From positions 89,247 through 153,246 of the forward strand of contig JAKAHD010000001.1 of NCBI GenBank assembly GCA_021815205.1: a stretch of DNA of 64,000 nt, read 5' to 3'. This DNA is from a bacterium. Its GTDB lineage: Bacteria; Patescibacteriota; Minisyncoccia; UBA6257; GWB1-50-10. This document shows positions 14,951 to 48,249 of the stretch, piece after piece (position 1 is the first letter of the stretch; every line of letters begins with the position of its first letter). Below the pieces are notes generated by a model. The model was not told where the DNA came from. It saw only the letters and a list, made by a program, of their open reading frames with translations, and searched no databases. Made by a program: the position numbers and the translations under genes.

Positions 14951-15419
14951 GGAGGAGGATTTGTGTTTGCGGAAGAAAACGATTCCGTATGATTTCGCCG
15001 CACATTCCCTCAAGGAAACGCAGGCGTTCGTGAGATCAATGCGGGAGGTGATGAAACGCGCGGACGGCGTCGGACTTTCGGCGAATCAGATCGGGCTTCC
15101 CTATCGCGTCTTTGTGGCACAAGTGCCGGACAGTCAGGGAGCACAGAAGTTCTACGCGGTCTTTAATCCGGAGATCGTGAAGCGGTCGAAAGAAACGGAG
15201 GCTCTCGAAGAAGGGTGCTTGAGCGTACCAAATACGTTCGGTTCCGTCGATCGGCATTACCGCGTGACGCTCACTGGATTCGATGCGCGCGGCAAGAAGC
15301 TCAAAATCAACGCGTGGGGACTCCTCGCGAGAGTGTTCCAGCACGAGGTGGATCACCTGGACGGGAAGGTGTTTGTGGATAAGGCGAAGATAGTGCACGA
15401 AGTCGGCGAGGATGGCTAA
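14919..15419 (+). CDS. def: peptide deformylase
   Basis: Motifs GVGLSANQIG, EGCLSVP and QHEVDHLDG (HExxH). Confidence 0.9.
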   Translation: MERKILRITNKEEDLCLRKKTIPYDFAAHSLKETQAFVRSMREVMKRADGVGLSANQIGLPYRVFVAQVPDSQGAQKFYAVFNPEIVKRSKETEALEEGCLSVPNTFGSVDRHYRVTLTGFDARGKKLKINAWGLLARVFQHEVDHLDGKVFVDKAKIVHEVGEDG

Positions 15420-19057: not shown

Positions 19058-19098
19058 TATATTTACCTCCACACCTAAGCCTGAGGTGTGGAGGTAAA
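19058..19098 (-). terminator. long hairpin downstream of copA (candidate terminator)
   Basis: 'atttacctccacacc-taagcctga-ggtgtggaggtaaat', about 15-bp stem. No strong U-tract. Arms resemble hairpins at 28696-28736. Confidence 0.35.
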
Positions 19099-19155
19099 TA
19101 GGCACTATTTTCCTGCCCGCCGACCTGTCCGCCAAAGTTTTGACATCGGCGGAAA

Positions 19156-21342
19156 CTATTCGCGCAGGCGGGGTTCGACGCGTTTAAGGAGCACGGCGTT
19201 CGTGGCCACAATAATGGAAGAAGCGGACATAAGGAGCGCGGCGATCTCCGGCCGCAAGGTCCAGCCAAGGGGGTGGTAGAACACTCCAGCAGCAACGGGA
19301 ATGGCCAGCATGTTATAAATCGCTGCCCAAAAAAGATTTTGCTTCATTTTAACGACCGTCGCCTTGCTCAAACGAATCGCGGCTACGATGTCGAATGGAT
19401 CAGATTTCATGAGGACGATGTTCCCGGTTTCAATCGCAACGTCGGTGCCCGCGCCGATCGCGATGCCGATATCGGCTTGCGCCAAGGCGGGCGCATCGTT
19501 CACGCCGTCGCCCACCATTGCTACGAACTTCTTCTCGTCCTGCAGTTTTTTTACGTAACTCGCCTTGTCCTCTGGGAGCACTTCCGCGAACACACGGTCG
19601 ATGCCGAGCTCTTTGCTCACCGCTTCCGCAACTTTTGCGTGGTCGCCGGTGATCATCACAACTTCGATGCCCATATTTTTCAATTCCTCGATGCTCTTTT
19701 TCGCGCTCGGGCGCACCGTATCCGCGACCGCGATGACGCCGGCAATCTTGCCATCAATGGCGAGCATGCTCAAGGTTTTGCCCTCTCCCGCGAGCCGGTC
19801 GATCGTCGCCCGGGCGGTTTCAAGATTTACACCGCTCGCATTCATAAGCTTCTCGTTGCCCGCAAGGATGCGTTTACCGTCGATCACGGCCTTTAAACCA
19901 TATCCAGCAACCGATTCGAACTGCGAGGACTTGACAAGCCGAATGTTTTTATTTGCCGCCTCATCGACGATGGCTTTTGCGATCGGGTGGTTCGAGCCGA
20001 TTTCGATGCTCGCCTCATATTTCAAAATTTCTTCTTCCTTCACGCTATTCAAGGGCGCGATATCAGTCACCTTCGGCTTGCCGAGGGTTAACGTTCCCGT
20101 CTTGTCCAGCACGATCGCCGTAAGACGGGAGGTATTTTCGAGTGTTGCTGCGTCCTTAATTAAAATGTTGTGCTTTGCGCCGATGCCGGTGCCGACTGCT
20201 ACCGCCGTCGGTGTGGCAAGCCCCAAGGCGTCGGGACATGCAATAACGACTGTTGCCACGGCAAAGGTTAACGCGGTAAGCAAGTTCGCACTGCCGATAA
20301 AATACCAACCGAGGAATGCGGCGATGCCGGAACCAATCGCAACAATCACCAGCCGTCCCGCCCAAATATCAGCAATGCGCTGACCGGGAGCTTTGGAATT
20401 CTGGGCGGTCTCCACCATTTTGATGATTTGGGCAAGCACGGTTTCCGAGCCGACTTGTGTGGCTTTGAATTGAATCGTGCCGGTGAGATTGACCGAACCG
20501 CCCACCACCTTGTCGCCGATCGTCTTTGAGATCGGTATAGATTCGCCCGTCACCAACGATTCGTCAATTGATGTTTCGCCCGAGGATATTTCGCCGTCCA
20601 CCGGAACCTTGTCGCCGGGTCGGAGTACCACACTATCGCCATGAATAATTTCCGCGCTCGGAATAGTAATCTCTTTGCCGTCCCGAATCACATTTGCTTT
20701 GGGCGGCACTAGATCAAAGAGGGCGCGCAAGGCATCCGAGGTGCCGCGGCGTGATTTCATCTCCATCCAGTGGCCAAACAAGACGAACGTAACCAAGAGC
20801 GCAGCGGCTTCAAAAAATGTTTCTTCGCCGCCGACGAGTGTGAGTAGAACGCTGAAAAGATAGGCCGCCAAAACGCCGGTCGCGATTAAGACCGCCATAT
20901 TAAGCTTCTTTGCTTTGAGCGAGTAGTAGGTGCCGGTAATAAAGATTGAACCAGTCCAAAAAACGATTGGTGTCGTGAGAATTAAGAGCAACCAATTGAT
21001 TGGAATGGGGGTTGGCAAATGTAACTTAAAAATAGTTGTGCCAACCGGCGAATACAGGAAAATAGGAACGGAGAGGAAAAGTGAAATGAAAAACCGGCGG
21101 CGCATATCCCTTTCCATCTGTTTGGCGATTGCTGGGTTGGTCATGGCCGCTTCATGATCGGTATGGCTCATTTTTTGCATGTTGTGACCAGTATGAGCAT
21201 CAACTTCCATCGGAATTAAATCCATACCACATCCGGGGCATTTGCCGGGCGCATTTTTAATGACTTCCGGGTGCATGGGGCAGGTGTAGAGAGTTTCTTT
21301 TGAATTGTGGTGATTATGGTTATTCATATTATTTATTTTCAA
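19156..21342 (-). CDS. copA: heavy-metal (Cu+-type) translocating P1B-type ATPase with a CPD transmembrane motif
   Basis: DKTGTLT, MVGDGVNDAPAL, TGES, and the Cu(I)-class TM signatures YN (AAIYNML) and MSASS. The TM6 motif reads IACPDALGLATP (codons tgt ccc gac), not CPC. N-terminal CPMHPEV...CPGCGM Cys4 metal-binding motif. Confidence 0.85.
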   Translation of the reverse strand: MKINNMNNHNHHNSKETLYTCPMHPEVIKNAPGKCPGCGMDLIPMEVDAHTGHNMQKMSHTDHEAAMTNPAIAKQMERDMRRRFFISLFLSVPIFLYSPVGTTIFKLHLPTPIPINWLLLILTTPIVFWTGSIFITGTYYSLKAKKLNMAVLIATGVLAAYLFSVLLTLVGGEETFFEAAALLVTFVLFGHWMEMKSRRGTSDALRALFDLVPPKANVIRDGKEITIPSAEIIHGDSVVLRPGDKVPVDGEISSGETSIDESLVTGESIPISKTIGDKVVGGSVNLTGTIQFKATQVGSETVLAQIIKMVETAQNSKAPGQRIADIWAGRLVIVAIGSGIAAFLGWYFIGSANLLTALTFAVATVVIACPDALGLATPTAVAVGTGIGAKHNILIKDAATLENTSRLTAIVLDKTGTLTLGKPKVTDIAPLNSVKEEEILKYEASIEIGSNHPIAKAIVDEAANKNIRLVKSSQFESVAGYGLKAVIDGKRILAGNEKLMNASGVNLETARATIDRLAGEGKTLSMLAIDGKIAGVIAVADTVRPSAKKSIEELKNMGIEVVMITGDHAKVAEAVSKELGIDRVFAEVLPEDKASYVKKLQDEKKFVAMVGDGVNDAPALAQADIGIAIGAGTDVAIETGNIVLMKSDPFDIVAAIRLSKATVVKMKQNLFWAAIYNMLAIPVAAGVFYHPLGWTLRPEIAALLMSASSIIVATNAVLLKRVEPRLRE

Positions 21343-21535
21343 TAGCTTGGTTTGTGATCTCTAAATTGCAACCGTGATGTTCTTTGCACCATGTTTCGCA
21401 CTTTTTCGCTTGCGTTTTCTCTTTATAATGCAAACCGCACTCTGGACACTTATGTGATTCCTCCTCGACTTTTTCGTTATGATTTTTGTGATCCATATAA
21501 TTTATATTTGTTTTACAGATTTTAACTTTTTCCAA
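21329..21535 (-). CDS. small zinc-ribbon protein (novel family) overlapping the copA start
   Basis: HKCPECGLHYKEKTQAKKCETWCKEHHGCNLEITNQA is homologous to the N-terminus of the 49345-51162 protein (YQCEACGFQY...KCEAWCKEHKSCNTEITAHA). Confidence 0.5.
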   Translation of the reverse strand: MEKVKICKTNINYMDHKNHNEKVEEESHKCPECGLHYKEKTQAKKCETWCKEHHGCNLEITNQAIENK

Positions 21536-22227
21536 GTAAGATGTTCGTAAATACTCGACCAGATAAAACCAAAGCTGAAAGCGAATAAAAGTTCTTCTAA
21601 TGGAATTCCTAATATCAAAATACCCGAGATAGCCTTGAGGTTCCAGACCTGTTCCACATACCCAGGATAAAGAGCAATGAGCGTTAAGAAATATACAAAA
21701 TAAATCCCTAAGAATATAAAAGCGCTTGCGATCATTTTCTTTTTAAGATCAGGTCTGCAATACCAAGAGAAAAAGCCGCCGACAAGCATTGCTATAATTG
21801 CCGAATAGATAGGATTAAGCGAAGTTGTAAAAAAGATCACAAAAAAGATAAATGGGGACGAGAGAATAGAGAGCAAGTGGTAGTTGTGGTGGATCAAATG
21901 ACGTTCATATGTTTCTATTCGCTCATGCGAAGTGCGATGGATACACTCATAGATCGCTACCGCGATACCACCGATAGCAAAAGAGAAAATGAAACTTTCA
22001 ATATCAAAACCAGTTCGGTGAGCTAAGTCAAAAAGTGATGGTGGATTCCAGTAGGTTGGAACAAAAAGTGGCTCTGTAAATCCAAAAAGTGCAGTCCATA
22101 AGCTCACCCAAAGCATTTCTTTTTTACTCTCTCTGTTTTTTAGAAGTACGTAAATAACTACCCAGATTGCAACAAGGATTAAGCTCCATAAAAACCAAGC
22201 AAGTTGTGGTTCGTGTGTTGAGTTCAT
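21502..22227 (-). CDS. hypothetical polytopic membrane protein
   Basis: 241 aa, 6-7 TM helices, overlaps neighbours (operon). Confidence 0.45.
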   Translation of the reverse strand: MNSTHEPQLAWFLWSLILVAIWVVIYVLLKNRESKKEMLWVSLWTALFGFTEPLFVPTYWNPPSLFDLAHRTGFDIESFIFSFAIGGIAVAIYECIHRTSHERIETYERHLIHHNYHLLSILSSPFIFFVIFFTTSLNPIYSAIIAMLVGGFFSWYCRPDLKKKMIASAFIFLGIYFVYFLTLIALYPGYVEQVWNLKAISGILILGIPLEELLFAFSFGFIWSSIYEHLTWKKLKSVKQI

Positions 22228-22595
22228 ACGTTTTTAGTTAGATATTTCTCGCCAAAGACAAGAGCAAGTGCCATAAACAAAAGTCCGGAATGCTCAAGCG
22301 CATCGAAAGGACTTGCAATAACGATCATGACGCCGACAAGCCAGATAAACGCCCATAAGCCCACACGACGTGTAGTAATACCAAAAAAGAGGAGCAAAGC
22401 GACGATACCGTCGTTCAAACCGATCACAAACGGCACAAATAGCTCCGGGCGGATTGGCAATAGAGGCAAGATAAACGAGTTGTTTATCAGCTCGATGAAT
22501 TCCGATGGTGCAAAAAACGCCGTTAGAGAATTAGCAAGGAAGATGACGCCTAAGCCAAAGCGAATCAAGAAGTTATAATTTAGAAATTTATTCAC
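22224..22595 (-). CDS. DoxX-like membrane protein
   Basis: 123 aa, 4 TM helices. The FGLGVIFLANSLTAFFAP pattern resembles the DoxX family. Confidence 0.4.
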   Translation of the reverse strand: MNKFLNYNFLIRFGLGVIFLANSLTAFFAPSEFIELINNSFILPLLPIRPELFVPFVIGLNDGIVALLLFFGITTRRVGLWAFIWLVGVMIVIASPFDALEHSGLLFMALALVFGEKYLTKNV

Positions 22596-22596
22596 G

Positions 22597-23127
22597 TTAT
22601 TTCAAACCCCATTTGAAAGATCGTTCTGGAATGCCGCCAATATCTTTGATTTTAAGTTCGACGGTTTGAGGCATTGGTTGGATTGCGTTAAAAATCAACA
22701 CTCCCTCCCGATGGTGGCCGCCGGGCCCGGCACCCTCCCAAGACAGGGGCTTATACACGTTACCTTTATCATCGACCAGCGTCACGATTTGTACAGGATC
22801 TTGATCAAGTTCGACCGAATGTGTGTTCATACCAATATCAAATTTCCACTCCGTCGATTGTGATGAAAGATTAAGCGGCGTAACTACGACGGTAACATTT
22901 GCTTGCTCGTCAGTCCTCGTCTCCCATTTTTGTTTCACGCCTGATGTTGAAGAGTTGTCTTGGGGCGGACGAGAGCTGGGTTTAGGATTATACAAGACCA
23001 GAGAAACTCCCACGAACACCAATGCCAATACGGATATTGTGATTACTTTTTTATTCATCCCGTTAGGGGTTCCCATGATTGATTTTTTGAGATATTGGTA
23101 ATTGCGACTATTTTTCAATTTTTCCAC
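22597..23127 (-). CDS. hypothetical secreted/membrane-anchored protein
   Basis: The track start is GTG. The likely start is the internal ATG (MNKKVITISVLALVFVGVSLVLY signal anchor), preceded by 'cccctaacggg'. Confidence 0.45.
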   Translation of the reverse strand: MEKLKNSRNYQYLKKSIMGTPNGMNKKVITISVLALVFVGVSLVLYNPKPSSRPPQDNSSTSGVKQKWETRTDEQANVTVVVTPLNLSSQSTEWKFDIGMNTHSVELDQDPVQIVTLVDDKGNVYKPLSWEGAGPGGHHREGVLIFNAIQPMPQTVELKIKDIGGIPERSFKWGLK

Positions 23128-23603
23128 CCGTCAGAGTTTTTTAGGTTTCTCACAGAGGCGGATCCGTCTCGGGCGGAGCATTTGATGATTTTATTGCTGA
23201 TAAATAAAATGCCGAATATGTTAAACGCAAGACCGATCCAGAAAATCTTGACTTGATATTGAGCTACAAACGTAGCAAGCCCCGTAACTCCGAGAATGGG
23301 AACCACATTCACAAGATAATGAGCGCAACAGGAAATCATAGAGGCCGTCGAAGTCGTACCTGATACGCCGACAACCTTGCTCATGCCAAGCCCCCCATGC
23401 ACTAAGGCCCTAAGATGCTGATATAAACCGATCTGAACACCGAAACCAATCGCCAAGCTCGTGATGAAATACCAGTATGTGCCGAATTGATCTTGAGCAA
23501 AGCTCCATCCGGAGACGAGCGTCAAGACCGCGAAGTACACACCAAGCAAGATCGCACTTGCAAGTGTCCCATATAATATTGCCTTTGCGTAAGTGTTTGT
23601 CAT
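23115..23603 (-). CDS. hypothetical membrane protein
   Basis: 162 aa, about 4 TM helices. Confidence 0.4.
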   Translation of the reverse strand: MTNTYAKAILYGTLASAILLGVYFAVLTLVSGWSFAQDQFGTYWYFITSLAIGFGVQIGLYQHLRALVHGGLGMSKVVGVSGTTSTASMISCCAHYLVNVVPILGVTGLATFVAQYQVKIFWIGLAFNIFGILFISNKIIKCSARDGSASVRNLKNSDGWKN

Positions 23604-23605
23604 GG

Positions 23606-23917
23606 TTACTTTTTGATATAGCTTTCCGGGTCTTTCTCAAACTGACTCCGGCAATGATCCGAACAAAAGACATACTCCTTGTCTTTGTAGGTGAAGGTAA
23701 TGCTGTCGCTTGCCCGCATACCGCACACCGGATCCCGCAAAAGCTTCTTTGATGGGATTTTTTTGAATTTGTTGAAGAATGATGTAAGCATAGATTTATC
23801 CCCCACACCTCCTGAGGGGTTTAGTGCCTTAATGGCAACACCCATGGCCGGGATGATCTTTTTTGTTTTTGCCATCTTTATCTTCGCCCTCTCCATTGGT
23901 AACCGATTTTTCCTCAT
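23606..23917 (-). CDS. YHS (TRASH-like) domain protein; start uncertain
   Basis: DPVCGMRASDSITFTYKDKEYVFCSDHCRSQFEKDP is the YHS metal-binding signature. An internal start (MLTSFF..., about 23791) would remove the overlap with the next gene. Confidence 0.6.
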   Translation of the reverse strand: MRKNRLPMERAKIKMAKTKKIIPAMGVAIKALNPSGGVGDKSMLTSFFNKFKKIPSKKLLRDPVCGMRASDSITFTYKDKEYVFCSDHCRSQFEKDPESYIKK

Positions 23918-24158
23918 CGGAATGTTTATGCGATCGACCCATCATAAAGAAGTGGGCTATGACCATTATGGCAACTCCACCGATAATGACCCACGTCGGA
24001 GCCCCAAATGCTCTGCCTCCGAGTCCGAGAATGACGATTAACAATAAGGGCGCCACACAGCACACCATCATTGTCCACATCATCCAATTCCCGTCTTTTT
24101 GATCGTGATTATGCATGGCGATTAATAGTTTAATAATAACCAGATTATCAACCCTCAC
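23829..24158 (-). CDS. DUF2933-like small membrane protein with C-terminal HGCCH
   Basis: VCCVAPLLLIVILGLGG helix pair and C-terminal HPGHGCCH. Confidence 0.4.
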   Translation of the reverse strand: MRVDNLVIIKLLIAMHNHDQKDGNWMMWTMMVCCVAPLLLIVILGLGGRAFGAPTWVIIGGVAIMVIAHFFMMGRSHKHSDEEKSVTNGEGEDKDGKNKKDHPGHGCCH

Positions 24159-24360
24159 GTTCTAACTGCCTGCGATACAAGGCGCATACTCCGGCCGAGA
24201 TGGAGATGAGAGTAAGCACAATTGCGTCATTGAAGCAGTGCTGTTGCGTGAAGCCGAAAATGGTGCCGTTCTGTCCGGCAAGCCACGCCCCAATGAGCGC
24301 AAGTACCCCCCAAATACCAGTAACAATCGAGACCCCGTGAATGAATGTGGATTTTTTCAT
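24148..24360 (-). CDS. small 2-TM membrane protein
   Basis: 70 aa hydrophobic ORF in operon. Confidence 0.3.
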   Translation of the reverse strand: MKKSTFIHGVSIVTGIWGVLALIGAWLAGQNGTIFGFTQQHCFNDAIVLTLISISAGVCALYRRQLEREG

Positions 24361-24366
24361 AGGTTT

Positions 24367-24648
24367 TTATTTATTGGAAAGGGTATATATCCTGATCAAT
24401 TCTTTAATTGCTTTTTGATCTTCACTTTTGCTCTGCATTTGATGTTTGACATGCGAGCGCAAGTGATTTTCAAGAAGAAAGCCGTCAAGACTCTTAAGCG
24501 ACCTTTGAATGGAGAGGGATTGTTCCAACAGCGTTGGGCAATACACCTCTTTCTCAATGGCCTTAATAAGACCATCAAACTGACCGCGAAGAATCCTCGC
24601 CCGATGGAGGGCGCGTCCTTTTATTTTCTGATCTACTCCGTGTTGCAT
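24367..24648 (-). CDS. CsoR/RcnR/FrmR-family metal-sensing transcriptional repressor
   Basis: 93 aa all-helical DUF156-type sequence. Ligand fingerprint positions read His3-Cys37-His62-His66 (MQH..., VYCPTLL, ENHLRSHV). Confidence 0.7.
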   Translation of the reverse strand: MQHGVDQKIKGRALHRARILRGQFDGLIKAIEKEVYCPTLLEQSLSIQRSLKSLDGFLLENHLRSHVKHQMQSKSEDQKAIKELIRIYTLSNK

Positions 24649-24690
24649 GTAGGTAACGCATTAGTGATTTTATCGACCTCTCTAGGTAGG

Positions 24691-24735
24691 GTATACCCCT
24701 ATGCCCTATTTGTCAAATCGTGCTTGTGGATAATC
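24691..24735 (-). promoter_or_regulatory. candidate promoter/operator of the csoR-like operon, shared with 28313-28368
   Basis: 'gtatacccctatgccctatttgtcaa-N12-ttgtggataa'. In gene orientation it contains TTGACA (-35-like) followed by a GC box 'aatagggcataggggtata'. Near-identical 45-bp motif at 28313-28368. Confidence 0.45.
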
Positions 24736-25710
24736 TTATATGCCACACCCGTCCTGCTGGCGCTGTGGCGCTGGGGCTGTTCCACCTGTATCTACACCGC
24801 ATCCGCTCCCGCCTCTCTCTTGTCGCGTTTGGGGGACTTGAGCGGCAATTCTTGCAAATCCGGAACCGCTTGAATATTCCGCGCTAAGAAGCATTTGCGG
24901 AGTTACACTTTTTACATCAATACCTTTTATTTTTAGGTATTGTGCAATGGTCTCGTATTGATCCGGGAACCAGGCTCTGTTGGCCGTTATGGCCGCATTC
25001 CACATCTCTTCCCCTGTTCTCCCTTGCGATGCCAGGTATTCAAGAAGCCCGAGCATTGCCATGCCGTGATTGCAATCCGGGAAATACGTTGAATTATTGC
25101 AGCAGGGCCGGTAAATTCCTTTCGCGATCTTCTCCACAAGCGCCTGCTGATCTGACGTGAGAGGGGCCAAGGCGTGCTTGTCGTAGTGATCCATCACCGA
25201 CCCCGTAGTAACCGTCCAACCGCCGACCGATGCCATGTTGGTCGGTCCGCCGTAGCGCACGTCCATAATCGGGCCGGTCTCCAAAACCGGGTTTTTATTT
25301 GCCAGACCATAAGCCCAGAGCAAGTTCAGCTCTGTCACTTGAGAAAGCTTGGCGGGATTGATAGTGCCATTCGCAATCAAGGCGGCAAGCATTTTCTTTT
25401 CTGTTTCTAAGGGCAGGATTTTTCCTCCGTCAACCAGGGTTGCCTGGCCGTTTTGCGAAGCCGCATTTTCTGCCGTCTGCGTCTCCGGGGAGCGATTCTC
25501 GTTGTTATAGATCATAGCTCCCGCAAGCATGGCTCCCGCAATGACAATGGCAATCGGGATCATATATCTGTTGCCGAACTCTTTAGGTTTCTCCTGTCTT
25601 GATCCCTCCTGTATCTCGTATTCCGTTTCGTGTTCCGTCCCATTAGAAATTTTCGTATCGGTGAGATTTTCATTTTTTTTCTTATCCATATTTTTATACC
25701 CGTTACCCAT
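24736..25710 (-). CDS. secreted/membrane-anchored protein carrying a novel Cys-rich domain (YRPCCNNSTYFPDCNHG ... GGSGCGV C-terminus)
   Basis: TM/signal MIPIAIVIAGAMLAGAMIY, then an about 250-aa domain homologous to the C-terminal domain of the 49345-51162 protein. Start may be the internal MDKKK. Confidence 0.6.
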   Translation of the reverse strand: MGNGYKNMDKKKNENLTDTKISNGTEHETEYEIQEGSRQEKPKEFGNRYMIPIAIVIAGAMLAGAMIYNNENRSPETQTAENAASQNGQATLVDGGKILPLETEKKMLAALIANGTINPAKLSQVTELNLLWAYGLANKNPVLETGPIMDVRYGGPTNMASVGGWTVTTGSVMDHYDKHALAPLTSDQQALVEKIAKGIYRPCCNNSTYFPDCNHGMAMLGLLEYLASQGRTGEEMWNAAITANRAWFPDQYETIAQYLKIKGIDVKSVTPQMLLSAEYSSGSGFARIAAQVPQTRQERGGSGCGVDTGGTAPAPQRQQDGCGI

Positions 25711-25721
25711 TCAGTATTGAT

Positions 25722-25790
25722 TGGATTTCTAACGGGACAAGTGTTTTTATCCCGTGAGAAGCAGGTCGCAATGCGACCGCGACTTCTCAT
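25722..25790. promoter_or_regulatory. inverted-repeat element in the 5' region of the 24736-25710 gene
   Basis: 'ttctaacggga-N13-tcccgtgagaa' (11-bp half sites, 1 mismatch), then hairpin 'gagaagcaggtcgcaatgcgaccgcgacttctc'. Shares 'agaagcaggtcgc' and 'ttctaacggg' with 27651-27775. Confidence 0.4.
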
Positions 25791-25795
25791 TGGGG

Positions 25796-26041
25796 TTATT
25801 TCTTACAACAATCCGTTAACTTGCTAATAATTTCTTCAATTGACTTTTTTTCGAGAGAACGCTTAGAAGATACGGAAAATCCAACCGCTCTCAACTTCCT
25901 TATTGTTTCTCTTACCCCCAACGATCTCACCTCGTTGAGAATAAGGCGACGCTGTTCGCATTTTTCACAGTGAGGTATATGAAGCGCCTTCGCAATCTTC
26001 CTCACCGTATCGCCGAGTCTAAGTTGCCGTTTCTTGCCCAT
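25796..26041 (-). CDS. small hypothetical protein with CxxC and C-terminal CC
   Basis: 81 aa: HCEKCEQRR...DCCKK. Basic, possibly nucleic-acid or metal binding. Confidence 0.35.
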   Translation of the reverse strand: MGKKRQLRLGDTVRKIAKALHIPHCEKCEQRRLILNEVRSLGVRETIRKLRAVGFSVSSKRSLEKKSIEEIISKLTDCCKK

Positions 26042-26042
26042 G

Positions 26043-26708
26043 TTATTGTTTGCTTAATTCCTGAATTTTACCGAAGAGCATGTCATTCGCTATTGCCATG
26101 TTCGGGTCATCGAATACGAATCTCACCATCCCCTCTTTATCAACCACGATATAGGTATGGCCTGGCAGTGAGCCGCGATGCATTGAGGAATTTGTAGTCA
26201 ACATGCCAAGCTCTCTCGAGGCGTTCGCACCTCCGTCAAACATGGTGGTTGCCTTCGCAAGCTCCGGCATCTTGGCTATTGCCGTCTGCCAGTCTCTCGC
26301 GGAATCGGTTACAACGGATATTGCTTGAATCTCTCCGCTCTTGAATCTTTGGTCGCTCCCGAATGATGCCATCTGATTCCAGCACGCCGGATAACACATA
26401 AGGCCCTCGTTGAAGAACAGAACGGTGTATTTGCCTCTGAAGTCTGCCGAGGTGTATATTTTTCCATCCTTATCAGTCAGTTGGATATTTGGCAATGGTT
26501 TTCCTATAAGGGAATTCAGTTGCTCGGTATTGGGGGCCCCCGGCGATCCATGCATGGTATCAGTGGCGGATGTTTGATTGGCGTTTTGCGGCGAACTCTT
26601 CATAAGGAGATATCCCAAGCTCAGCGCCACGACCGCAATGATGGTGATCGTGAGCCAAGGAGTTTTTTGATTGTAGTTATTTTTATTCATCCCGTTAGAA
26701 GTTTTCAT
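26043..26708 (-). CDS. secreted thioredoxin-fold protein with CxxxC motif (Sco/redoxin-like)
   Basis: Signal anchor. FRGKYTVLFFNEGLMCYPAC resembles the Trx-fold active-site region, with CxxxC spacing as in Sco1/SenC. The likely start MNKNNYNQKTPW... is preceded by 'acttctaacggg'. Confidence 0.5.
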   Translation of the reverse strand: MKTSNGMNKNNYNQKTPWLTITIIAVVALSLGYLLMKSSPQNANQTSATDTMHGSPGAPNTEQLNSLIGKPLPNIQLTDKDGKIYTSADFRGKYTVLFFNEGLMCYPACWNQMASFGSDQRFKSGEIQAISVVTDSARDWQTAIAKMPELAKATTMFDGGANASRELGMLTTNSSMHRGSLPGHTYIVVDKEGMVRFVFDDPNMAIANDMLFGKIQELSKQ

Positions 26709-26796
26709 GATTATTTTTTTGTTTTTTTATTTTGGCTAGCGAAGAGCGAAATGAAAATTTATTTCCATTTCGTCCGAGCGAAGACGAAACAAAAGA

Positions 26797-27648
26797 CTAT
26801 TGTCTTTTATATTGTTTAATGAACACATACGAAACGTACGCGACTATTCCAATGAAGAGAAGCGCCCAAACGTATTCCGGAATCAACGTTACCAATCCGT
26901 TGATTGCGTCCAAGAACTTGGCATTCCACAGATTTATTTGCAATTGATACTCCGAATGTACGAATAACGTATTGCTGAACGCCAAATACGTTATGTAGCC
27001 GCCCATCAAGAGAAATATCAATCCGGAAATGAGCTCCGAGACGGTAATGTGCCAGCTCCAGCTCCCGATTCTCATCCCCACCGTTTTCTTGGCGTTCGTG
27101 AATCGTTCTGTCAGATTTACTTTGTCGAGGAACGCCGCAATGATAAAGAGCGGCAGGGTCATACCTACGACATAGGCCAAGGTATACAACGCGCCCCACA
27201 GAATGGTGCCGCTTGCAACGGACAGCGCGAGCACACCGGCGAGCACCGGCGCACAGCAGGTAGTGGCAATAGCCGAGAAGATACCGAGAATATAGATCGA
27301 GGACACATGCCGCTTCATGCCGTCACGAACGGAGGTCGGGGTGGTGAACTTCTTGCCAAAGAGCATTGAGAGTCCCAACGCCATCAGGAAAATTCCGCCA
27401 ACGGTGAAAATTATGTTGTGGTATTTACTGAACAACTGTGCCAAGAAAGAGGCTCCAAGTCCGATTGGCAAGAAGACCGTCGCTACTCCCAAGAAGAAGA
27501 CAAAAGTCATGAAGAATATTTTGTATTTTTCTTTGAAGATGTTTCCCAAGTAGGACGGTAAGAGGACGGTAATACAGCATGGGGCAAAGAGCGCGGCAAC
27601 CCCCGCCACGAACGCCGCTATGAGTGATGTCCCTACAAGTAATTCCAT
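26797..27648 (-). CDS. DsbD/CcdA-like transmembrane thiol-disulfide transfer protein
   Basis: 283 aa, about 8 TM helices, paired membrane cysteines (FAPCCITVLLPSYLG and IATTCCAPVLAG). Start codon directly preceded by 'gcgacctgcttctaacgga'. Confidence 0.5.
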   Translation of the reverse strand: MELLVGTSLIAAFVAGVAALFAPCCITVLLPSYLGNIFKEKYKIFFMTFVFFLGVATVFLPIGLGASFLAQLFSKYHNIIFTVGGIFLMALGLSMLFGKKFTTPTSVRDGMKRHVSSIYILGIFSAIATTCCAPVLAGVLALSVASGTILWGALYTLAYVVGMTLPLFIIAAFLDKVNLTERFTNAKKTVGMRIGSWSWHITVSELISGLIFLLMGGYITYLAFSNTLFVHSEYQLQINLWNAKFLDAINGLVTLIPEYVWALLFIGIVAYVSYVFIKQYKRQ

Positions 27649-27650
27649 TC

Positions 27651-27775
27651 CGTTAGAAGCAGGTCGCGATCAGCCGACCCTGCTTAATGATTAAGTTTGT
27701 GGATTCTCGACCCGCTTTCATATCGACGTTCTTTCTCTTTAGAGAAATCGTGATCGCGGCTTCTAACGGGATCCA
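27651..27775. repeat. MITE-like element with about 18-bp inverted ends between ccdA-like gene and upstream gene
   Basis: Left arm 'ccgttagaagcaggtcgcgatc', right arm 'gatcgcggcttctaacggg'. Internal hairpin aagcagg/cctgctt. Confidence 0.5.
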
Positions 27776-27885
27776 TATAGTTTTTTGCATAGGTATTATT
27801 TGATGCGAGTTAGTGAATAACAAAAATATCCTTTTTGAGAGGATATTGAAACAGCACGAAAAAGCGTATCGCTTAATGCGTGCTG

Positions 27886-28296
27886 TTAGTGCAAAGAGGG
27901 ACTAAGCTCAAATAGAGAAAGCCACGAGGTAATTTTCTGCTCACCGCCTAAAGAGTGAAGCGTCCCCTCTCGCCGCCGCTCTTGCAATAGTTCCGGTTTC
28001 GGAAGCAGTACATTTTTATACCATAGAACTATCGAAACCGAAGCAAGAAGCAGGGACACGATCAATGAAAGCCAGCCGGAGATCGGCGGCACCACGGTTG
28101 TCGTAAGCGTTTGAAAAGCGGAGACATGATGCAAAGTCATGTCCATGATGCTTGCGGGACAGGCCGTTCCGTCTATGGCCGAGGCAATACAACCGTCGCT
28201 TGAGCCACCCATCATCGCATGCTCAAAAAGCGAAAAACCAAAAACACCTATTCCGACAAAGCTCATTATTAGGAGTAGTGACGCAAGATATTTCAT
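27886..28296 (-). CDS. hypothetical membrane/secreted Cys-containing protein (first gene of second metal operon)
   Basis: 136 aa. N-terminal TM, central Cys/His cluster (DGCIASAIDGTACPASIMDMTLHH), C-terminal TM. Confidence 0.4.
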   Translation of the reverse strand: MKYLASLLLIMSFVGIGVFGFSLFEHAMMGGSSDGCIASAIDGTACPASIMDMTLHHVSAFQTLTTTVVPPISGWLSLIVSLLLASVSIVLWYKNVLLPKPELLQERRREGTLHSLGGEQKITSWLSLFELSPSLH

Positions 28297-28312
28297 GGGA
28301 TTACAAGATGAA

Positions 28313-28368
28313 TATATACCCCCATACCCTATTGGTCAAGTTAAACCATTGTGGATAACAACAAGGCA
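28313..28368 (-). promoter_or_regulatory. candidate promoter/operator of second metal operon (paralogous to 24691-24735)
   Basis: 'atatacccccataccctattggtcaa-N12-ttgtggataa'. In gene orientation TTGACC...gggggTATATA then ATG 17 nt later. Confidence 0.45.
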
Positions 28369-28384
28369 AGGAAAGATTATTAAC

Positions 28385-28420
28385 GCTTTTGCATTTGCTG
28401 CGGGACTTGGATTCGAACGT
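28385..28420 (-). repeat. direct duplicate of tRNA-Gln 3' end plus 15-nt downstream flank (att-like)
   Basis: 'cgcttttgcatttgctgcgggacttggattcgaac' is identical at 28385-28420 and 28563-28598. The first copy lacks the rest of the tRNA. Confidence 0.7.
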
Positions 28421-28576
28421 CGTCCGCCTAAGGCGGACTCCTTGAAACCCATCGGTTTCAATACTTCCGCCACGGGGAAACTCCCGTTTCCCCGACCCCT
28501 TTCCCGGTTCGAATCCACGCCCAAGAAATGCTAAAGCGATATACCTTTTGAGTATAGTATATCGCTTTTGCATTTG

Positions 28577-28647
28577 CTGCGGGACTTGGATTCGAACCAA
28601 GATGACATGATTCAGAGTCATGTATCCTACCATTAGATGATCCCGCA
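28577..28647 (-). tRNA. tRNA-Gln (anticodon CUG)
   Basis: Cloverleaf reads UGCGGGA/UCCCGCA acceptor with U1-A72 and G73 (as in bacterial tRNA-Gln). D-arm AUCU-AAUGGUA-GGAU, anticodon arm CAUGA-CUCUGAA-UCAUG, T-arm CUUGG-UUCGAAU-CCAAG. No encoded CCA. Confidence 0.8.
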
Positions 28648-28689
28648 AGTGCGGACTTATCATATCAAGGAAGAAGAGACGATTCAACT

Positions 28690-28770
28690 CGAAATGTAAA
28701 CCCCCACACCATAAGCATAAGCCTATGGTGTGGGGGTAAACCGCCGTCAGTTGCTTGACGGCGGAGATTT
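28690..28770 (-). terminator. tandem hairpins downstream of the Cys-repeat protein gene
   Basis: 17-bp stem 'taaacccccacaccata...tatggtgtgggggttta' and 10-bp GC stem 'ccgccgtcag-ttgc-ttgacggcgg' with adjacent T-run. Confidence 0.45.
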
Positions 28771-28777
28771 TGGTGGG

Positions 28778-30568
28778 TTATTGGGTGAGAATGTTTCCTA
28801 GGCTTTGCGCGAATGTCCGGAATGCGCCTAAGAGGTTTCCTCCAGAAGATGGCGCAGGAGACGGCGGCGTCATGCCGGCCGGAGGCATCTGGTTCATTGG
28901 CGGTATCTGACTTGCGGGCGGTTGTCCTTGCGGAGGCATCTGCCCCTGCGGAGGTTGTCCGTCTGAAGGAAGTTTTCCGTTCGGCGGGAATCGTCCCTGA
29001 AACTCTTGCATCATCTTTCGCAGATTGCTCTCATCGCCTTGACCCCCCCGATGATTATCTTTACCATCTTGCGGCATCATCTGAAGTTGTTGTTGATTTT
29101 GAAACTGCCCTCGCTCACCGCCCTGCCCTTCGAAGGGCGGCATCTGGCCTTGATTAGGTTGTCCGTTTGGCGGCATTTGTCCGCCAGGGAGGTTGCCTTC
29201 CTGCCCATTCATCATTGGACCGCCATTCGGAAACTTCCCATTCGGCATCTGCCCCTTAAAGGGAATCCCTTCAGGGGTAAGCTGACCTCCTCCTTGTTGC
29301 TCCCCTTGATGCATCTGCCGTATTGTTCCGGGACCTCCCTCTCCTTGCGCGCCTTGAGGAGGTATCATCTGCTCAAAACATTGGCGCATTTTTTCGCCGA
29401 TGCCCTGCGACGCCATCATCGTGCCGCTTTCCAGTTTTTGCATTATGTCGCTTCCCAACGCGTTCTTGAGGCAGTCGAGTACCGCAGGCGGCGCCTGTTC
29501 GAGTGATTGCCGCATCATCTGTCTTCCCTGTTCCATCTTCCGAAGGTCTTCCGGCGGTATCATGCCGTTATCCTTCGCAAACTGGAAACAGGTTTGTTGG
29601 TTTTGAGGATCCTTGCAAAACGTCTCGCACGCGTCTTTGCCGACACATCCGCCCGGACCCTTCCCTCCCGTCTTTTGCGCCATCTCGGCATCCTTTTCCG
29701 TCATGAAGCCCGCGGCCACCGCGAATTTCGTACACTCGTTCACGTGCGCGGGGTCGGCGCAATATTGATCACACGCTTCCTTCCCTTGGCACGCAGGCGG
29801 CTTCACGCCCGCCTGGAGCGCCTTCATCATTCCCTGCGACTGCTCCGCTTCCTTCGGCGTCATAAACCCAGCCTCTTTCGCGAACGTTATGCACTGGAGC
29901 ATGTGGTCGGCCGATGCGCTACAGTAGGTGTTGCACGAATCGCGTCCTCGACAGGGCGGCGGCGTAATACCCTTGTCAATCGCCGTAAGCACTTTCTCGG
30001 CGTTCTGGAGTTCTTCTCCTTTTAAAAATCCTGCCGCCTTGCCGAATGTGATGCACTCCTTCATGTGCGAAGGCTCGCTGCAATAGGTATCGCACGCGTC
30101 TTTGCTCTTGCACGCGGGCGGCTTCACGCCGCTTGCGATCGCCGCTTGTATCCGTTTTGCCTGCTCGAGCCCGCCGGGCGGCGTGATGCCCGTCTTCTCC
30201 GCAAACGCAAGGCATTCATTGATGTGATCAATGTTCGAACAATATGTCTTGCAGGAACCGAGGGACGTGCACCCGCCGGGACCCTGGAGCGATTTCCGCG
30301 CAAGCTCCTCGGCGACGTTCACCTCGTGCTCCGACATTAAGTTGTGGGCCTTCGCAAACGCAAGACACGCATCTGTGTGCGAGGCATCCGCGCAGTATGT
30401 TCTGCATGAGTCTTTACTCGAACAATTTCCGAGCTCGGCAATCGGATATTGGAGCGAGGCGAAAGGATTCGGTCCTGCAACCGTTTGCGCCCGAGCGATG
30501 TGCATGATCACGCCCGCGATCGTTATCCCTGTAGCAAGAATGGCGACCGTGAATAATTTCGTTCTCAT
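28778..30568 (-). CDS. secreted protein with six tandem Cys4(His) repeats and a Met/Gln/Pro/Gly-rich C-terminal tail (novel; putative metal-binding)
   Basis: Signal peptide. Six about 45-50-aa repeats of C-x2-[KR][DE][SA]C-x-[TQ][YF]C-x3-H-x3-C-x2-FA-x2-G. Then about 250 aa of low complexity with MM/MPP/QMPP motifs. Confidence 0.6.
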   Translation of the reverse strand: MRTKLFTVAILATGITIAGVIMHIARAQTVAGPNPFASLQYPIAELGNCSSKDSCRTYCADASHTDACLAFAKAHNLMSEHEVNVAEELARKSLQGPGGCTSLGSCKTYCSNIDHINECLAFAEKTGITPPGGLEQAKRIQAAIASGVKPPACKSKDACDTYCSEPSHMKECITFGKAAGFLKGEELQNAEKVLTAIDKGITPPPCRGRDSCNTYCSASADHMLQCITFAKEAGFMTPKEAEQSQGMMKALQAGVKPPACQGKEACDQYCADPAHVNECTKFAVAAGFMTEKDAEMAQKTGGKGPGGCVGKDACETFCKDPQNQQTCFQFAKDNGMIPPEDLRKMEQGRQMMRQSLEQAPPAVLDCLKNALGSDIMQKLESGTMMASQGIGEKMRQCFEQMIPPQGAQGEGGPGTIRQMHQGEQQGGGQLTPEGIPFKGQMPNGKFPNGGPMMNGQEGNLPGGQMPPNGQPNQGQMPPFEGQGGERGQFQNQQQLQMMPQDGKDNHRGGQGDESNLRKMMQEFQGRFPPNGKLPSDGQPPQGQMPPQGQPPASQIPPMNQMPPAGMTPPSPAPSSGGNLLGAFRTFAQSLGNILTQ

Positions 30569-44262: not shown

Positions 44263-44332
44263 CCTTTCATTGTACCATAAGGAGCTCTTTTCTGTGCAAC
44301 GTTATCCACATGAAGTTATTCATCCCCGCACC

Positions 44333-47628: not shown

Positions 47629-48249
47629 TCATGAAGATTGTTTCGCGGACGATCGAGAATATTTGACAATAATTCTAGTAAGAATGACCGCAACAATGAC
47701 CGCGAGAATAAAAATGCCGGCTCTCGTTGACCATGCCTCGATGACCCGCAACGCGCCGCCAAAGAAATAACCAAGAAACAAGTGCGCCGTTGCCCACAGA
47801 AAACCGCTCACGAGATTCCAGAGCAGGAACTGCCACTTGTTCATCTTTGAAAGACCGGCAATAAAAGGGATGATCGGTCGAAGCGGTCCGATGAATCTGC
47901 CCAAGAACACGCTCTTGCCGCCGTGCGTTTTGAAGAACCGCTCTCCTTTTTCCAAGTGCGCCCGCTTAAGCCATCGGTTTTCTTCCTTGAAGAACCTCGT
48001 TCCTTTCGTCCCAAGCCAGTAACTCAAGTTGTCGCCCAGTATCGCGCCTATTGCCGCGAACCAGATCAGATCGCCGAGATCAAGATAACCCCGGGAGGAG
48101 AGGAAACCCGCGAGGGTCACAAGGATCGCGCCCGGCACCACCGATCCGACAAATGCGAGCGACTCGGTGAGCGCGACGAGCAACACGAGCCAATACCCAA
48201 ACACGCCGAGGTGCTGGAGTGCGGGGAGTATTGAATTAATCGCGTTCAT
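47629..48249 (-). CDS. DedA/SNARE-associated family membrane protein
   Basis: VTLAGFLSSRGYLDL...AIGAILGDNLSYWLGTKG signature region. 206 aa. Confidence 0.75.
   Translation of the reverse strand: MNAINSILPALQHLGVFGYWLVLLVALTESLAFVGSVVPGAILVTLAGFLSSRGYLDLGDLIWFAAIGAILGDNLSYWLGTKGTRFFKEENRWLKRAHLEKGERFFKTHGGKSVFLGRFIGPLRPIIPFIAGLSKMNKWQFLLWNLVSGFLWATAHLFLGYFFGGALRVIEAWSTRAGIFILAVIVAVILTRIIVKYSRSSAKQSS

Follow-up and report, generated by a model that had tools for sequence, protein, structure and literature searches.

A putative CsoR-controlled copper homeostasis block with an envelope thiol module beside a tRNA-Gln gene in an uncultured member of the Patescibacteria

The CsoR-CopA(-CopZ) operons, namely, cso of M. 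tuberculosis, copZA of B. subtilis, and copZ-csoR-copA of T. thermophilus, combine an autoregulated CsoR repressor, a promoter operator made of G/C tracts, and control of a P1B-type ATPase; operators of the CsoR family generally consist of G/C tracts with flanking AT-rich inverted repeats. Copper tolerance and handling also involve the Scs (ScsB-ScsC/ScsD) and CcdA/DsbD-TlpA-Sco relays, in which a DsbD/CcdA transporter feeds extracytoplasmic thioredoxin-fold proteins. CcmH takes the position naturally downstream of such a CcdA/DsbD-to-thioredoxin-like relay in the System I pathway of cytochrome c maturation. Here, we analyzed a stretch of 64 kb (hereafter, the window; contig JAKAHD010000001.1, positions 89,247 to 153,246) from an uncultured, ultra-small member of the Patescibacteria (Parcubacteria type) and focused on a block of genes at 19156-28296. 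We consider it likely that this block is a CsoR-controlled copper homeostasis supra-operon, comprising copper-type efflux and envelope thiol/copper handling and assembled from modules that recur throughout the phylum.

All long open reading frames (ORFs) between 19156 and 28296 (coordinates refer to the window) lie on the minus strand, forming a 9.6-kb block of 15 genes. An earlier reading made from the sequence alone had described two tight operons beside a tRNA-Gln gene, and the ORF list confirmed its coordinates and gene order. Operon 1 comprises ten ORFs, beginning with a CsoR-family gene (24367-24648) and ending with a P1B ATPase gene (19156-21342), and its neighboring genes are either separated by 1 to 6 nucleotides (nt) or overlap by 4 to 89 nt. 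The sequence-only reading had counted eleven genes here, while a separate gene call on the 143-kb metagenome contig (ENA ERZ27237563) also gave ten. Operon 2 comprises five ORFs, from a gene for a protein of 136 amino acids (aa) (p136; 27886-28296) to a 324-aa protein gene (24736-25710), with intergenic gaps of 237, 88, 1, and 85 nt, in that order; the 324-aa protein, which has a PCCNNST motif, is referred to as PCC. Above the curated Pfam cutoffs, we found Trns_repr_metal (CsoR/RcnR), YHS, HMBD plus E1-E2_ATPase plus Hydrolase, Lycopene_cyc, DsbD_TM, and AhpC-TSA/Redoxin, showing that the recognizable families are not confined to the ATPase, YHS, and CsoR genes, as had been claimed. Matches to DoxX/MauE, DUF5643, a zinc-ribbon family, and DUF2933 were below threshold. 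All named close homologues of the window genes came from Patescibacteria or from metagenome-assembled genomes of the Parcubacteria group. For comparison, we used the best 80 loci containing a PCC homologue, taken from different species genomes, called their ORFs, and classified these by iterative searches; loci are designated by L numbers, L001 being the window's own contig.

The 80 loci were compared for the genes that recur near PCC. A CcdA-like protein was found near PCC in 72 of them, p136 in 70, a P1B ATPase in 66, a DUF1573-type protein in 52, CsoR in 41, a "DCC-tail" protein in 31, and a CxxxC redoxin in 23. These genes form a core module, p136-(DUF1573 or redoxin)-CcdA-(DCC-tail)-PCC, in about 70 of the 80 loci, the order being p136, a DUF1573-type protein or a CxxxC redoxin, CcdA, often a soluble ..L(A/T)DCC.. 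protein, and PCC. The place of the redoxin is taken, in most of the related loci, by a protein of the DUF1573 type that carries the motif SCMCT. A second recurring block reads (SHOCT)-p86-109aa-(ICMT)-(YHS)-162aa-176aa-(Lycopene_cyc)-(Zn ribbon)-ATPase, and a third is composed of an HMA-DsbD_2 membrane protein and a cupredoxin-like partner. The window contains the redoxin version of the core together with the second block, an order almost repeated in L067. Conservation of the block does not include the genes that flank it in the window. In most loci, homologues of the genes without a known family adjoin CsoR and ATPases of the CopA (CPC plus HMA), CopB (CPH), or CPD type. The sequence-only reading had assigned these genes to the metal system on the basis of context; because their homologues recur beside copper-type ATPases and CsoR, this assignment now rests on a comparison across genomes rather than on adjacency alone. 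A literature search on this module in Patescibacteria or the candidate phyla radiation returned nothing specific.

The repressor encoded at the head of operon 1 (24367-24648; 93 aa) belongs to the CsoR/RcnR family (PF02583, 55.8 bits versus a cutoff of 22.8) and aligns with the CsoR proteins of M. tuberculosis, T. thermophilus, and S. lividans as well as with FrmR. Its predicted ligands, Cys37, His62, and His66, constitute a C-H-H set instead of the canonical C-H-C and equal those of T. thermophilus CsoR in the alignment, so that the x-C-H-C fingerprint of Cu(I)-CsoR sensu stricto (Cys36, His61, and Cys65 in M. tuberculosis numbering) is not present. C-H-H is common among the 42 CsoR homologues of the related loci, 25 of which have this set and 16 of which have C-H-C. 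The window repressor begins with MQH and thus has a His3, while close orthologues begin with MVDQK, three residues later, and have no His3. An RcnR-like H-C-H-H reading was therefore rejected as a family trait; the NCBIfam RcnR model scored 22 bits on this protein (cutoff, 138).

Both operons are preceded, on the minus strand, by a promoter/operator box of the same layout, in which TTATCCACA is followed after 8 to 10 nt by the core TTGACmAATAGGGyATrGGGGTATA. In the box of operon 1 (24689-24733), TTGACA is combined with the operator ATAGGGCATAGGGGTAT (24693-24709), and in that of operon 2 (28311-28358), the operator ATAGGGTATGGGGGTAT (28316-28332) lies in the spacer of TTGACC-17-TATATT, a 10/12 sigma-70-type promoter with the G-tracts inside its spacer. 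These boxes had been described as near-identical over 45 bp. That they are shared was borne out, but near-identity was not, as 34 of 46 aligned columns (74%) agree; in the promoter core, 24 of 27 columns match. The operator consensus, ATAGGGyATrGGGGTAT, is of the G-tract type. Allowing up to two mismatches, the 17-mer ATAGGGNATNGGGGTAT occurs in the 64 kb only at 24693-24709 and 28316-28332, with 0.08 occurrences expected, and the same 17-mer is found directly upstream of csoR orthologues in five other genomes (L003, L015, L034, L048, and L067) and, in L067, also upstream of the p136 operon. Since the operator is common to both promoters and conserved at orthologous csoR genes, it is well supported at the sequence level that a single repressor would govern both operons, and this repressor is expected to respond to metal. 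As a side observation, TTATCCACA (24725-24733 and 28350-28358) is identical to the DnaA-box consensus and lies about 10 nt upstream of the -35 element in both promoters. Six orthologous promoters from five other genomes have it unchanged or with a single change, and the window contains four copies (the others at 15374-15382 and 44302-44310), compared to 0.36 expected.

The last gene of operon 1 (19156-21342) encodes a P1B-type heavy-metal ATPase of 728 aa with PF19335, E1-E2 ATPase, and HAD domains above cutoffs. Its N terminus consists of a His-rich leader followed by an HMBD (CPMH..CPGCG; PF19335, E 1.6e-11), and its membrane motifs are CPD in transmembrane helix 4 (TM4), YN(x)4P in TM5 (IYNMLAIP), and MSASS in TM6. 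The protein scored 570.9 bits with the copper-translocating NCBIfam model TIGR01511 (cutoff, 397), and ZntA-type models scored far lower. Its closest solved relative is A. fulgidus CopA, which aligns from end to end, with the YN and MxxSS motifs kept and ACPCAFGLATP paired with ACPDALGLATP, the second Cys of CPC being replaced by Asp. TM5 and TM6 thus display the P1B-1 CopA signatures YN(x)4P and M(x)2SS; no Pfam match to an N-terminal HMA domain with MxCxxC, as in P1B-1 pumps, was obtained. The signature of P1B-3 CopB, CPH in TM4 and MSxST in TM6, was not found either, although the window pump shares the His-rich N terminus and YN(x)4P with this group. CPD is conserved in 13 further loci, making 14 Patescibacteria loci with the window's own, and is therefore not a sequencing error. 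An ORF scan of the related loci, excluding L001, gave 26 CopA ATPases with CPC plus HMA and 13 with CPD; about 20 further ATPases missed the motif pattern, and the eight of these located beside CsoR, plus that of L028, read CPH (CopB type). Among the related loci, C-H-C repressors went with CPC pumps only (15/15), while C-H-H repressors went with CPD (9), CPH (8), and CPC (5) pumps. In Rhizobiales, CPD combined with an MSxSS-type TM6 was listed as a novel subtype and grouped with P1B-3 (PMC5552934). Unlike the window pump, the Rhizobiales pumps are poor in N-terminal His, and unlike them, the window-type CPD pumps are paired with a C-H-H CsoR; both groups are uncharacterized. The CPD pump and the C-H-H sensor leave room for a shifted specificity.

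Operon 2 starts with p136 (27886-28296), the first gene of the core module, whose product is a 2-TM protein with two invariant Cys (..GC.. and ..CP..) and a His in its outside loop and the C terminus W..L.E.SP. It is followed by a 283-aa thiol:disulfide electron transporter of the CcdA/DsbD_TM type (26797-27648; PF02683, 46.7 bits versus a cutoff of 27.1), of which the membrane Cys residues, a Pro-Cys in helix 1 and a Cys-x-Pro in the second motif, are at least 90% conserved among 74 homologues. The third protein (26043-26708; 221 aa) is a membrane-anchored redoxin of the thioredoxin fold, Sco/peroxiredoxin-like, which matched AhpC-TSA and Redoxin with 53.8 and 52.2 bits, respectively (cutoffs, 26 and 26.6). 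Both its CYPAC (CxxxC) and its PGHTYIVVD motifs are at least 90% conserved in 24 homologues. CxxxC with a downstream His before a beta-strand is the defining pattern of Sco proteins. The redoxin displays this Sco1/SenC motif, CxxxC plus a downstream His, but scored 18.3 bits with Sco1/SenC PF02630 (cutoff, 22.8), and the closest solved relatives in a PDB search were peroxiredoxins and ResA, with ScoI (Blr1131) ranking below the peroxiredoxins at E 0.04. The fourth gene (25796-26041) encodes a soluble protein of 81 aa that contains CEKC and has the C terminus ..KLTDCCKK, a tail also seen in the DCC-tail proteins, which lie ahead of PCC in 31 loci. The likeness to the Scs and CcdA/DsbD-TlpA-Sco relays resides in the CcdA and redoxin families. 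In contrast to these relays, the window redoxin has CxxxC and not CxxC, the genes are under CsoR and not under CpxR/CueR-type regulators, and PCC, p136, and the DCC-tail/81-aa protein have no counterpart there. A side observation on operon 2 concerns the motif CTTCTNACGGRAT, which occurs four times (25749-25761, 26689-26701, and 27647-27659 on the minus strand and 27760-27772 on the plus strand); with one mismatch allowed, there are eight copies in the 64 kb, compared to 0.58 expected. With one inverted CTTCTNACGGRAT pair, the CcdA start codon becomes part of a long stem, the spacer between the 81-aa protein and PCC genes folds with a z score of -6.6, and inverted CTTCTNACGGRAT pairs are also present in L044, L068, and L079.

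PCC (24736-25710; 324 aa), the last gene of operon 2, encodes a member of an uncharacterized family with an N-terminal TM anchor, a helical extracytoplasmic domain, and a disordered/flexible tail containing GCGV...GCGI. R201, C203, C204, N206, D212, C213, N214, H215, G216, A218, and C304, and thus four Cys and His215, are invariant down to about 30% identity. A profile search gave 4,835 clusters at 90% identity and 472 representatives at 50%. An AlphaFold model built from 81 sequences had a pLDDT of 82, exceeding 90 over residues 100 to 295. Neither a sequence-profile search nor Foldseek identified a relative among solved structures; the best structural match of the model was the periplasmic thiol-oxidoreductase domain of CcmH, a weak match restricted to a subdomain. 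hhalign paired the active-site sequence RCPKCQNN-SIADSN of CcmH with YRPCCNNSTYFPDCN of PCC, with E values of 0.09 and 0.16 obtained from a single sequence and a shallow 12-sequence profile of close enterobacterial CcmH proteins, which is not significant. Because of this, and because none of the 81 PCC family members matched Pfam CcmH (PF03918), the PCC motif being RPCC and not LRCxxC, we did not file PCC under CcmH. PCC further differs from CcmH in having CC...C instead of CxxC, about three times the size, extra helices, and a Cys-Gly tail. In general, Patescibacteria are not known to respire with c-type cytochromes. Fusion partners gave no clue, as ten longer members (430 to 600 aa) contained no Pfam domain except one BNR repeat. 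As operon 2 brings together CcdA, a protein of the thioredoxin fold, and a Cys domain resembling CcmH, the most economical working model for it is a thiol relay.

Between repressor and pump, operon 1 encodes eight extra small membrane or metal-ligand proteins, for which the CsoR-CopA(-CopZ) operons have no equivalent. A 70-aa 2-TM protein (24148-24360) has 85% identical copies in L012 and L047 and was found by jackhmmer in 9 other loci. It is followed by a 109-aa 2-TM protein (23829-24158) whose His-rich tail ends in GHGCCH, with homologues in 23 other loci; the label DUF2933 was not retained for this protein (E 0.11, 13 bits versus a cutoff of 21). The YHS-domain protein (23606-23917; PF04945, 41.6 bits versus 30.3) carries a metal-binding Cys motif. 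Next come a 162-aa 4-TM protein with an invariant SCCAHY (23115-23603) and its partner, a 176-aa membrane-anchored extracytoplasmic protein with an invariant GGHHREG (22597-23127), which always accompanies it. The profiles of this pair showed no solved relative in the PDB and, in Pfam, only weak DUF5643 matches, given by 9 of 12 members of the 176-aa family, with no family for the 162-aa protein. A 123-aa protein (22224-22595) is present in 18 other loci and resembles DoxX/MauE membrane proteins below threshold (MauE, 23.0 bits, cutoff 27; DoxX, 21.0 bits, cutoff 23.6), a label that was hence not adopted. The 241-aa polytopic membrane protein (21502-22227) has a lycopene-cyclase-type domain (PF18916, E 1.7e-19) and occurs in 9 other loci, mostly between the 162/176-aa pair and the ATPase. 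Finally, a 68-aa cytoplasmic protein (21329-21535) resembles a Cys4 zinc ribbon (CPECG...C..WC; weak PaaD zinc-ribbon match), with homologues in 8 other loci that keep the Cys residues. As a side observation, a 42-nt direct repeat (86%; 23048-23089 and 26680-26721) spans the starts of the 176-aa and redoxin genes and gives both proteins the same N-terminal ..NGMNK.. signal-anchor beginning.

The tRNA-Gln gene (anticodon CTG; 28576-28647, minus strand) has its 3' end toward the block, at 279 nt from the first start codon, that of p136, as expected of a tRNA-integrated genomic island. The last 22 nt of the tRNA and 16 nt downstream are duplicated as a 38-nt direct repeat (28381-28418 and 28560-28597; 97%). 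The sequence-only reading had the island abutting a tRNA with an att-like duplication. The tRNA and the repeat are both real, but the repeat does not bracket the island and was rejected as its boundary, having no bracketing copy and bounding only a 141-nt element. This tRNA-linked structured element (28381-28575, minus strand; about 140 to 180 nt) is composed of a post-tRNA hairpin, three internal hairpins, an inverted T-arm-like end (28506-28522), and the second tRNA-3' copy (28381-28418). Its first 157 nt fold with a z score of -7.5, and Rfam returned the tRNA match only. A scan for the tRNA-3' junction identified three unrelated metagenome contigs with the same arrangement (L085:3334-3530, L086, and L087), in which conservation extends from the tRNA through the subsequent hairpins to the second tRNA-3' copy, insertions leaving the hairpins intact. 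Homology to the window stops exactly past the second tRNA-3' copy, the window continuing with the promoter of operon 2 and these contigs with an unrelated 562-aa gene. The tRNA-3' duplication is thus the point at which different cargo attaches. As a separate observation, duplicated fragments of 16 to 18 nt of a cluster-bordering tRNA are found in L016 (2131-2148), L036 (2286-2302), and L077 (10829-10844), at about 60 to 800 nt from the tRNA and never bracketing the cluster.

We propose the following model. At low copper, the CsoR-family tetramer (Cys37, His62, and His66) would sit on the G-tract operator in the -35/-10 spacer, keeping both operons shut, and binding of Cu(I) would free it from the operator, as is suggested by the family. 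Operon 1 would then yield the repressor itself, the small metal-ligand-rich membrane and YHS proteins, and the CopA-like ATPase, which, with its CPD site, His-rich N terminus, and HMBD, would pump the metal out of the cytoplasm. Operon 2 would constitute an outward-facing thiol relay, in which CcdA moves reducing equivalents across the membrane to the membrane-anchored CxxxC redoxin, which in turn would hold the invariant Cys clusters of PCC and p136 reduced. These clusters might either bind and pass on exported Cu(I) or mend copper-catalyzed wrong disulfides in the envelope. The whole block would sit in a variable region 3' of tRNA-Gln. The system is of a known kind, which is not true of its accessory proteins, its CPD pump, and its sensor pairing. 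We raise, as a tentative idea that falls somewhat short of being probable, that the core module is an undescribed phylum-wide extracytoplasmic copper thiol relay, that PCC is a new class of Cys-cluster proteins with a CcmH-like core reused outside cytochrome maturation, and that the CPD pump, with its C-H-H CsoR as a sensor of its own, represents a third, uncharacterized branch of copper-type P1B ATPases.

The claim of a copper-type metal system, already made by the sequence-only reading, is supported by the family matches, the shared and conserved operator, and the synteny with copper ATPases, and copper is the best-supported metal, chiefly because classical CopA and CopB are found with these accessory genes as well. 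The following points weigh against it. The pump has CPD in place of the TM4 CPC of P1B-1 CopA, a motif noted as novel in uncharacterized pumps of Rhizobiales (PMC5552934); the second Cys found in canonical Cu(I)-CsoR is missing from the sensor; and, unlike the CsoR-CopA(-CopZ) operons, the window encodes no CopZ/HMA chaperone. The 324-, 136-, 81-, 70-, 109-, and 162-aa proteins matched no curated family in Pfam or NCBIfam, so that the roles of PCC, p136, the 162/176-aa pair, and the 70-, 81-, and 109-aa proteins are deduced from conserved Cys/His and context, and the model as a whole is built on the sequence of an uncultured organism. One could suppose that the same architecture serves another metal, the C-H-H sensor and the CPD pump being directed not at Cu(I) but at a harder or borderline metal (Ni, Co, Zn, Cd, or Cu(II)). 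T. thermophilus CsoR, likewise C-H-H, has been reported to respond to several metals in vitro. The change of the Z-position Cys of CsoR to His, the RcnR-like His3, the oxygen ligand that Asp brings in for the second TM4 Cys, and the best whole-protein NCBIfam matches of the repressor (FrmR, RicR, and RcnR, all far under cutoffs) point the same way. Nevertheless, we regard another metal as distinctly unlikely, given that His3 is missing in close orthologues, that C-H-H sensors also pair with CPH (CopB) and CPC (CopA) pumps, that the pump keeps the copper-type YN and MxxSS motifs and exceeds the copper-subfamily cutoff with ZntA-type models far lower, and that homologues of the operon 2 module lie beside classical CopA plus HMA genes in 26 loci. 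Copper could also be delivered rather than detoxified, with the ATPase, the Sco-like redoxin, and PCC loading an extracytoplasmic cuproprotein in the manner of FixI/CtpA-type pumps with Sco/PCuAC for oxidases. The Sco hallmark of the redoxin and the many related loci with an HMA-DsbD_2 membrane protein and a cupredoxin-like partner would fit such a role, but control by a CsoR-type repressor implies expression when copper is in excess, neither the ORF list nor the family scans showed a cuproenzyme gene in or beside the block, and the SCO1-SenC score of the redoxin is below the cutoff, all of which makes delivery very improbable. We give hardly any credence to the proposal that operon 2 deals with envelope thiol redox or oxidative stress in general, as a CcdA-redoxin pathway of the CcdA-Etrx or ScsB-TlpA-peroxidase type that is just located beside a metal pump, with PCC acting on proteins as a thiol oxidoreductase. 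It would agree with the peroxiredoxins as best solved relatives of the redoxin and with CcmH as top structural match of PCC, and it overlaps with the branch of the copper model in which copper-induced disulfides are repaired; however, operon 2 has the CsoR-type operator of operon 1, both here and in L067, and the module is linked to a copper-type ATPase in 66 of 80 loci.

Whether the block is an island is a separate matter. That it is an ordinary, vertically inherited core cluster of the Patescibacteria, located beside a tRNA by chance, is unlikely in our view, although a number of results go in that direction. At least 586 species genomes contain a PCC homologue, and a family so widespread behaves like a phylum-level accessory module. 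No integrase or recombinase family was found in the Pfam/NCBIfam scans of the ORFs from 16.9 to 30.6 kb, and a third copy of the repeat is absent near 19.0-19.2 kb even with three mismatches, the two copies being 179 nt apart. No empty site was recovered via the identical flanking SDR protein, since all eight such contigs carry the block. Moreover, the 141-nt element occurs at tRNA-Gln in contigs without the island, and the duplication is therefore not a by-product of the insertion of this island. Against these results stands a difference in sequence divergence: UvrC, encoded 2.7 kb away, had no non-self homologue above 71% identity among 5.8 billion proteins, while island proteins reach 77 to 89%, with best matches scattered over different genomes (L044 for the ATPase; L006 for the 162-aa, redoxin, and YHS proteins; L067 for CcdA, PCC, and p136; L015 for CsoR; and L047 for the 70-aa protein), and the flanking genes do not share in the conservation of the block. 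In other genomes, it is bordered by tRNAs of many different identities: a tRNA lies within 300 bp of the cluster edge in 8 of 80 loci, where the tRNA density in these loci would predict about 2.4, and within 700 bp in 15 loci, compared to about 5.6. In 13 of these 15, including two further tRNA-Gln(ctg) genes, the 3' end faces the cluster, and as five of the 13 cases are convergent, this is not explicable by co-orientation. The nearest relative found, GCA_021814165.1, which is distant (identities to the window of 88% for UvrA, 85% for LepA, and 67% for UvrC), has retained the order LepA...UvrB...UvrA-patatin-UvrC, followed by an equally oriented tRNA-Gln(ctg) with no part of the island behind it, while L085 to L087 carry other cargo there. 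On the basis of the mosaic of high identities, the bordering tRNAs with their 3' ends facing, and the other cargo at the tRNA-Gln site, we favor the island reading; the block was probably acquired and reshuffled by horizontal transfer among Patescibacteria and would be mobile over evolutionary time.

Several features lie at or near the borders of the block. A palindrome with 20-nt arms (19060-19100; 95% complementary) and a CCACACC..GGTGTGG core lies 56 nt past the ATPase stop and is likely a terminator, marking the low-coordinate end of the block. A second CCACACC..GGTGTGG palindrome (28700-28737) lies between the neighboring 596-aa gene and the tRNA. The two are related, their loops sharing TAAGCCT, no others occur in the 64 kb, and both are located just outside the ends of the segment formed by tRNA-Gln, the element, and the two operons. 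Their function could be that of boundary elements or of terminators belonging to one type; among 83 loci, a further such palindrome was found in L046 only, likewise at the cluster end. The neighboring gene (28778-30568, minus strand) encodes a 596-aa secreted protein containing some seven repeats rich in Cys (C..C..YC....H..C..FA) and a tail rich in Gln, Pro, and Gly, which matched no Pfam/NCBIfam family and, among the 80 loci, only the window's own contig. Farther away, a VTT/DedA-domain ORF (47629-48249, minus strand) shares 83% identity with the N-terminal portion of a VTT-PAP2-LssY_C protein (L006:12101-14197) encoded 1.2 kb from the metal cluster of L006, an identity far exceeding the housekeeping-gene level. 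GC content, ranging from 0.40 to 0.58 across the whole window, was uninformative as a sign of foreign origin.

Patescibacteria are a very large uncultured group with small genomes and few recognizable stress systems, and our comparison shows that they share a large modular gene neighborhood around copper pumps. This neighborhood contains at least five unannotated families, namely, PCC, the 136-aa protein, the 162/176-aa pair, the DCC-tail proteins, and the 109-aa protein, for which ligand residues, a confident PCC model, an operator sequence, and a sensor/pump pairing are now available and which can be tested in heterologous hosts. If the model holds true, it would provide a functional context for the uncharacterized CPD variant of P1B ATPases and would add a further CcdA-driven thiol relay that serves metal handling and not cytochrome maturation.

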